NCBI RefSeq assembly: GCF_003790525.1
Contig: NZ_CP033635.1
Strand: one strand, 5' to 3'
DNA length: 64,000 bases
Source of the DNA: Escherichia coli
GTDB lineage: Bacteria; Pseudomonadota; Gammaproteobacteria; Enterobacterales; Enterobacteriaceae
Shown: positions 60,472-60,729 of the stretch, in pieces
Position numbering within the stretch: the stretch's first letter is position 1
Layout of the letters: the number at the start of each line of letters is the position of its first letter
The notes under the pieces: generated by a model
What the model was told of the DNA's origin: nothing
What the model saw: only the letters and a program-made list of their open reading frames with translations
The model's database searches: none
Program-made: the position numbers and the translations under genes

Positions 60472-60729
60472 CTAATTAGTAGAGTATCTAATCTGTCTTT
60501 GGTATGTGTAAAAATCCAGGTTTATCCCACCATCCGGGGCGTATCCCCAGAAAACTGGATCAAGATGGAGTTTCTCGTCACGTTCGCTCAGAAGCAGAAC
60601 TTTGGTGCCTGGCGCAACGTTGAAACGTCCGATCGGTTCAGGGTCATATGGAATGTCTTGCTCGACTTCATCTGCGAGAAGGGCGAGATAGTCTTCACGC
60701 GTCATTGACTGTGAAAAGCGTCCGCACAT
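60472..60729 (-). pseudogene. SOS response-associated peptidase (SRAP/YedK-like), truncated after about 64 conserved residues
   Basis: ORF track 85 aa MCGRFSQSMTREDYLALLADEVEQDIPYDPEPIGRFNVAPGTKVLLLSERDEKLHLDPVFWGYAP then unrelated tail and stop; full-length SRAPs are about 220 aa. Confidence 0.65.

Follow-up and report, generated by a model that had tools for sequence, protein, structure and literature searches.

Genomic context and features of the island

The window, i.e. the whole 64-kb stretch of E. coli DNA analysed here, carries the genes opp, cls, kch, an island, yciI, tonB, yciA, yciB and yciC, in this order. It is 100% identical to the corresponding region of strain SMS-3-5 (NC_010498.1), except for an extra 1330-bp IS3-family insertion in the SMS-3-5 island. 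The island (56163-60867) is 4.7 kb long and has a GC content of 41%. The site is empty in K-12, which matches the window up to position 56162 and again from 60868, and 34 bp of K-12 DNA match both borders. The duplicated att core, ACACTTTCTTAAA, is found in two exact copies, at 56150-56162 and 60887-60899, inside a 34-bp imperfect repeat. The repeat spans the last codons and the stop of yciI, and the C-terminus of the gene product (...VKPFKKVF*) is preserved at the right copy. The following features have been recognized.

56129..56162, no strand: attL, left att core copy (from K-12 empty-site comparison and repeats)
56349..56477 (+): N-terminal stub of an integrase, 43 aa, Arm DNA-binding domain, 78% identical to phi80-type int
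56476..57402 (-): IS3-family remnant with 28-nt terminal inverted repeats, cutting the integrase at codon 43 and abutting the tail-fibre stub
57460..57828 (+): C-terminal stub of a tail-fibre gene (Peptidase_S74 chaperone domain)
57917..58144 (-): DinI-like gene, 75 aa, intact
58160..58179, no strand: LexA-like box TACTGGGTGTATATACAGTA, preceding the DinI-like gene
58340..60518 (-): AT-rich (32% GC) putative replacement segment, ~2.2 kb, carrying an LTA-synthase/sulfatase-family gene
58570-60363 (-): LTA-synthase/sulfatase-family gene, intact, 597 aa
60472..60729 (-): 85-aa ORF as first reported; residues 66-85 are out-of-frame and junction-derived
60518..60519, no strand: truncation breakpoint, from SRAP homology (52% GC) to AT-rich foreign DNA
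60519..60729 (-): SRAP (YedK-like) pseudogene remnant, nt 1-212 of a ~669-nt gene, one base short (DNA alignment, tblastn, Pfam, PGAP)
60536..60539 (-): frameshift site, a C4 run in place of C5 or TCCC in intact homologues (DNA alignment, and tblastn segment in frame -1)
60730..60782 (-): DNA 5' of SRAP, also present in intact prophage copies; Shine-Dalgarno and -10-like hexamer, no LexA box
60775..60817 (-): terminator-like hairpin GGGCGC/GCGCCCC, then U8 (read from sequence and fold)
60868..60901, no strand: attR, right att core copy, overlapping the end of yciI (from K-12 empty-site comparison and repeats)

The att duplication coincides with attB of phage phi80, at the 3' end of yciI, and the integrase stub next to attL is of the phi80 family. 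Across stub and attL arm, identity is 78% to int and the annotated attP core of phi80, HK225, mEp237 and mEpX1; the Pfam Arm DNA-binding match of the stub (22.7 bits) is below the cut-off. In laboratory phi80dlac lysogens the same integrase resides at the same kch-yciI site, adjoining kch. Given the phi80-like stub and attL arm, and the location of phi80dlac lysogens, the island is best regarded as what is left of a lambdoid prophage whose integrase was of the phi80 type, sitting in the classical phi80 attachment site. The original prediction had placed the gene of interest on the margin of a mobile element; its start codon lies indeed 138 bp inside attR of this att-flanked island.

The wreck keeps 4.7 kb, in contrast to the roughly 45 kb of phi80, with only a tail-fibre stub, the DinI-like gene and the SRAP stub; complete replication, lysis, head and tail modules are missing. 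Moreover, phi80 gave no SRAP match in a search of a phage collection, and the parent must therefore have been a different phage with the same type of integrase. The integrase stub has relatives, 78% identical, only among phi80-type phages and in phi80dlac lysogens, all devoid of SRAP, and an intact parent prophage carrying a phi80-type int and the same SRAP allele at attphi80 was not found.

The IS3-family remnant is 927 bp long, and has one fused ORF of 292 aa, in which HTH and rve domains are recognized. The extra insertion of SMS-3-5 is a complete IS3-family element, absent from the window, which interrupts this remnant again (positions 4354-5683 of the SMS-3-5 locus). At the opposite end of the island, the terminator-like hairpin found downstream of the yciI stop is located in island DNA; it was not called by a simple consensus terminator scan. 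The integrated element appears to supply both the 3' end of yciI and the terminator-like structure.

A fragment of a SRAP gene

The ORF list of the window includes an 85-aa ORF on the minus strand (60472..60729), with MCGRFSQSMTRED (MCGRF) as N-terminus. The claim that this is a genuine SRAP start, inclusive of Cys2, is borne out by the Pfam SRAP profile (PF02586; gathering cut-off 27.1 bits), which matches ORF residues 1-66 with 30.8 bits (E 2.7e-7), over profile positions 1-65 of 214 only. Solved structures of E. coli YedK (6kcq, 2icu, 6nua and others) match residues 1-65 with E values of about 2e-36. Over the same residues, 57 of 65 positions (87.7%, tblastn) are identical in K-12 YedK, and the figure is likewise 87.7% for the core YedK of SMS-3-5. 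Full-length prophage SRAPs of strains 1943 and 20A24 are 92% (60/65, E 7e-37) and 83% identical to the ORF, respectively (tblastn). The original prediction had contemplated that similarity to SRAP proteins might prove not significant; it is highly significant, and at levels so far above chance residues 1-65 can be taken as a genuine SRAP N-terminus.

The fragment resembles E. coli YedK (2ICU, 6NUA, 6KCQ) in its first 65 residues, 88% identical inclusive of the Met-Cys2 start, but corresponds to ~32% of the gene, is frameshifted, has 78% DNA identity, and resides at another locus, in a prophage remnant. Cys2, the nucleophile, directly follows the initiator Met. A complete SRAP domain (~214 positions, ~220 aa) is not found, homology stopping at codon ~71, and the active-site residues Asn75, Glu105 and His160 all fall past the breakpoint. 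No homologues were found for the out-of-frame tail of the 85-aa ORF. As judged from these alignments, the locus is a SRAP-derived gene fragment, not a functional member of the family.

Two independent tracts of damage

The reading frame had been said to diverge after about 64 residues in a truncated, decayed gene. Alignment with two intact prophage genes places the shift exactly after codon 65, and two lesions were found rather than one. The first is the loss of one base from a C5 run (60536-60539), where intact prophage genes read GGATACGC(C/T)CCCGG and the window reads GGATACGCCCCGG. The continuation of the protein, GWWDKP (residues 66-71), was recovered by tblastn in the neighbouring frame -1 (segment 60506-60553), down to about 60506-60519. 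The second lesion is the exchange of the last two-thirds of the gene for foreign AT-rich DNA. All nucleotide homology to SRAP ends at 60519, after GATAAACC (codon ~71 of 222), megablast end-points agree with this limit, and the GC content falls from 52% to 32% leftward of it. About 32% of the gene is left.

Homopolymer runs are typical error sites, and one may suppose that the gene is intact, frameshift and truncation being artefacts of sequencing or assembly. The probability of such a scenario is practically nil. The locus is present in 30 of 5426 E. coli genomes, at 99.8-100% identity, and the extra base is absent from all these independent complete assemblies, two of which, those at 99.8%, are one base shorter. 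When the lost base is put back, the translation (MCGRF...WGYAPGWWDKPGFLHIPKTD*) ends at about 80 aa, and hence no single-base correction rescues the SRAP gene; a full-length SRAP restored in this way, which had been indicated as the outcome contrary to the original prediction, is not obtained. Sequencing error is thus refuted by the 30 concordant genomes, and by the end of homology at 60519.

Alternatively, foreign DNA may have simply split an intact SRAP gene, the 3' part of which survives beyond the inserted segment. The AT-rich segment does resemble inserted foreign DNA, and a related SRAP gene, found in strain Ecol_545, is split by IS421, with both halves in place. Yet, the tblastn search that had been suggested to locate the C-terminal portion and the point of frameshift, run with four full-length SRAP proteins (word size 2 for two YedK queries), pinned the shift after codon 65 and detected no similarity to SRAP residues 76-222 in any of the six frames of the whole 64-kb window. 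The sole match beyond the N-terminus with E below 0.1 is the 14-16-residue shifted-frame continuation, all others having E>0.1. In addition, the DNA at the left of the AT-rich segment is not SRAP, but the upstream region of the DinI-like gene. A simple insertion is extremely improbable, and was rejected, no C-terminal part of SRAP being found in the window. The 3' two-thirds of the gene have in all evidence been lost by replacement or deletion.

That the locus is a pseudogene is already known. PGAP flags in SMS-3-5 the sequence corresponding to window 60506-60729 as pseudogene ECSMS35_RS09535, and the RefSeq label reads 'SOS response-associated peptidase family protein; frameshifted; incomplete; missing C-terminus'.

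SRAP genes as prophage cargo

Complete relatives of the fragment reside in prophages. In strain 1943 SRAP is the last prophage gene, and follows a tail-fibre assembly gene; in strain 20A24 the prophage end carries genes for a S24 peptidase, a Y-family polymerase and SRAP; the e14-like prophage of Ecol_545 hosts pinE, DinI, S24 peptidase and SRAP, the latter split by IS421, with both halves present. The matching region of strain Nissle includes DinI and S24 peptidase. Searching a phage collection revealed close SRAP homologues in PHB10, Gifsy-2 (match limited to residues 1-178) and one Klebsiella phage, and more distant ones in Erwinia, Pseudomonas, Stenotrophomonas and SPbeta-like Bacillus phages.

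The prophage SRAPs (1943, WP_096035061.1; 20A24, WP_001514219.1; PHB10; Gifsy-2; Klebsiella phage ST846-OXA48phi9.2) are the closest relatives of the fragment, reaching 88% identity at the DNA and 92% at the protein level. As in the window, SRAP is the last gene by the prophage end, is transcribed inward, and has the same upstream region; DinI and S24-peptidase genes lie near the prophage copies. In contrast to the fragment, which ends at codon ~71, the prophage proteins are full length (222-223 aa), Gifsy-2 and Ecol_545 being exceptions. Homology of the window to related prophages is restricted to two tracts, 57861-58339 (DinI and upstream DNA) and 60519-60782 (SRAP 5' end and upstream DNA); the 2.2-kb DNA with 32% GC between 58339 and 60519 lies outside.

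These comparisons bear on the notion, put forward in the original prediction, that the ORF is a decayed paralog. Decay is evident. Derivation from a duplication of the resident yedK is in turn very unlikely, in spite of the 88% protein identity to YedK over 65 residues. At the DNA level the 1943 prophage copy shares 88% identity with the fragment, core yedK (K-12, SMS-3-5) only 78%; the region upstream of SRAP (TATACTTTCAGTCTGACATCTGGCTGGAGGTT) is common to the 20A24 prophage copy, and not to yedK; and the fragment sits inside att-bounded phage DNA. On the basis of DNA identities, upstream region and location, an intragenomic duplication was rejected. Because of the closer DNA match to the 1943 copy and the prophage-like upstream region, the fragment is best explained as horizontally acquired prophage cargo.

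In Ecol_545 (7026-9043) the target duplication made by IS421, GGGATACGCCCC, corresponds to the same C-run which suffered the 1-bp deletion in the window (60536-60539). This could be a coincidence, or denote a fragile or target-prone spot.

In the E. coli genome collection, 75 SRAP-like matches are on plasmids, as on the 127-kb plasmid of strain 1448, where the gene is annotated as SRAP family protein; prophages are thus not the only carriers of SRAP cargo.

SOS context

The fragment had been described as next to other SOS-associated genes. The statement holds for the DinI-like gene, and does not extend beyond this single gene. The LexA-like box TACTGGGTGTATATACAGTA is located 16 bp upstream of the DinI-like gene, and is the sole match at <=3 mismatches in the 64-kb window, where 0 are expected. 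The SRAP fragment lacks a LexA box of its own: the DNA ahead of its start does not contain CTG-N10-CAG, and neither do the corresponding regions of two prophage copies and of K-12 yedK. In related prophages the intergenic region upstream of DinI is shared by a divergent S24 (UmuD-like) peptidase gene.

The AT-rich segment

Within E. coli the AT-rich segment is found in the same 30 genomes only. Homologues of the LTA-synthase-family protein, 45-66% identical, have been identified in Citrobacter, Pragia, Kosakonia and Enterobacter; two of their gene contexts were inspected, and in both the gene is a singleton, with no adjoining SRAP. No IS ends or meaningful repeats were seen at the borders of the segment. 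The gene may be involved in modification of the cell envelope. Homologues of 589-599 aa back the long ORF; in SMS-3-5 the RefSeq start is 306 nt further downstream, which yields a protein of 495 aa. According to the simplest reading of the alignments, the segment would have taken the place of the S24-peptidase gene, possibly of a polymerase gene, and of the last two-thirds of SRAP.

Upstream signals and possible usefulness of the remnant

The remnant is preceded by a strong Shine-Dalgarno sequence (GGAGG, 60735-60739) and, further upstream, by a -10-like hexamer, TATACT (60759-60764), which is conserved. Some 30 nt before the SRAP ATG, the window and two prophage copies have exactly the same longer motif, TATACTTTC (60759-60767, minus strand), between diverging flanks. 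It is probably the -10 element; alternatively, its CUUUC part could pair with the GGAGG Shine-Dalgarno. Remnant and LTA-synthase gene are on the same strand, the remnant being 108 bp upstream. The 85-aa product may be expressed, or transcription may read through into the LTA-synthase gene.

The co-orientation and close spacing of the two genes, along with the conserved signals, could be taken to mean that the remnant is kept as useful, either as promoter/leader of the LTA-synthase gene, or as source of an 85-aa Cys2 peptide endowed with residual reactivity towards aldehydes or AP sites; the isolated N-terminal peptide of YedK crosslinks AP-DNA, 100- to 1000-fold slower than the enzyme (PMC9436759). 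We consider this unlikely. A promoter-like site is also present within the AT-rich DNA (60512-60483), the tail of the peptide is out of frame and without homologues, and conservation of the locus in 30 near-identical genomes says nothing on selection, because these share descent.

Loss of function and the resident yedK

YedK, the bacterial homologue of HMCES, attaches to abasic sites by a thiazolidine crosslink formed through Cys2. Catalysis of ring opening and of Schiff-base formation falls to Glu105 and His160, and both are required, along with Cys2, for efficient crosslinking; mutants at E105 are up to 1000-fold slower (PMC9436759). Asn75, printed once as Asp75 in the text of the same paper, contacts Cys2 (PMC9436759). 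The remnant has kept Cys2, and has lost Asn75, Glu105, His160 and two-thirds of the fold. On account of these losses, and according to published YedK enzymology, it would not be a working SRAP, nor act as an abasic-site crosslinking enzyme. The function is plausibly supplied by the intact core yedK of the cell. In SMS-3-5 the core gene encodes 222 aa, and is found at its normal place between yedF and yedL; yedK-like sequences (~78% DNA identity) occur in 5377 of 5426 E. coli genomes.

A proposed history

The feature is very probably the dead 5' remnant of a prophage-borne SRAP/YedK-type gene, left behind by integration of a prophage at the phi80 site and by its subsequent decay. The order of events that we infer is as follows. 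A lambdoid phage with a phi80-type integrase would have integrated at the phi80 attachment site, at the 3' end of yciI. Its cargo next to attR plausibly comprised genes for a DinI-like protein, a S24 (UmuD-like) peptidase, possibly a Y-family polymerase, and SRAP, the latter transcribed inward from attR; this gene order is drawn from prophages residing at other sites. In the course of decay, an IS3-family element may have cut the integrase, and nearly all phage genes would have been deleted. The 2.2-kb AT-rich segment with the LTA-synthase gene would have replaced the DNA from just past the upstream region of the DinI-like gene to SRAP codon ~71, and a 1-bp slippage deletion in the C5 run would have shifted the frame after codon 65.

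Taken alone, the feature is a routine pseudogene of a decayed prophage, in a strain that still has a working yedK. It is of some interest as a worked example in two respects. It illustrates how additional SRAP genes of E. coli belong to the cargo of prophages, located by attR with other SOS-type genes, and how such cargo is eroded by IS insertion, replacement by AT-rich foreign DNA, and homopolymer slippage. In addition, it shows the historic phi80 attachment site to be occupied by this island.

A broader scenario may be drawn, in which the dead 5' end of SRAP has been co-opted as promoter/leader of the LTA-synthase gene, and SRAP, DinI, UmuD-like peptidase and Y-family polymerase make up a recurrent, exchangeable cargo block for DNA-damage tolerance at the attR end of enterobacterial prophages, from which the chromosomal yedK may have been domesticated. 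Taken as a whole, this scenario is unlikely. As a minor observation, core yedK is two genes away from an integrase stub both in K-12 (6822-9781; intG, 'cryptic prophage PR-G') and in SMS-3-5 (21695-24556), which hints that the chromosomal yedK may itself lie at the edge of an old integrated element; a T3SS-effector-like gene (yedN/espR3) is found between core yedK and the integrase stub.
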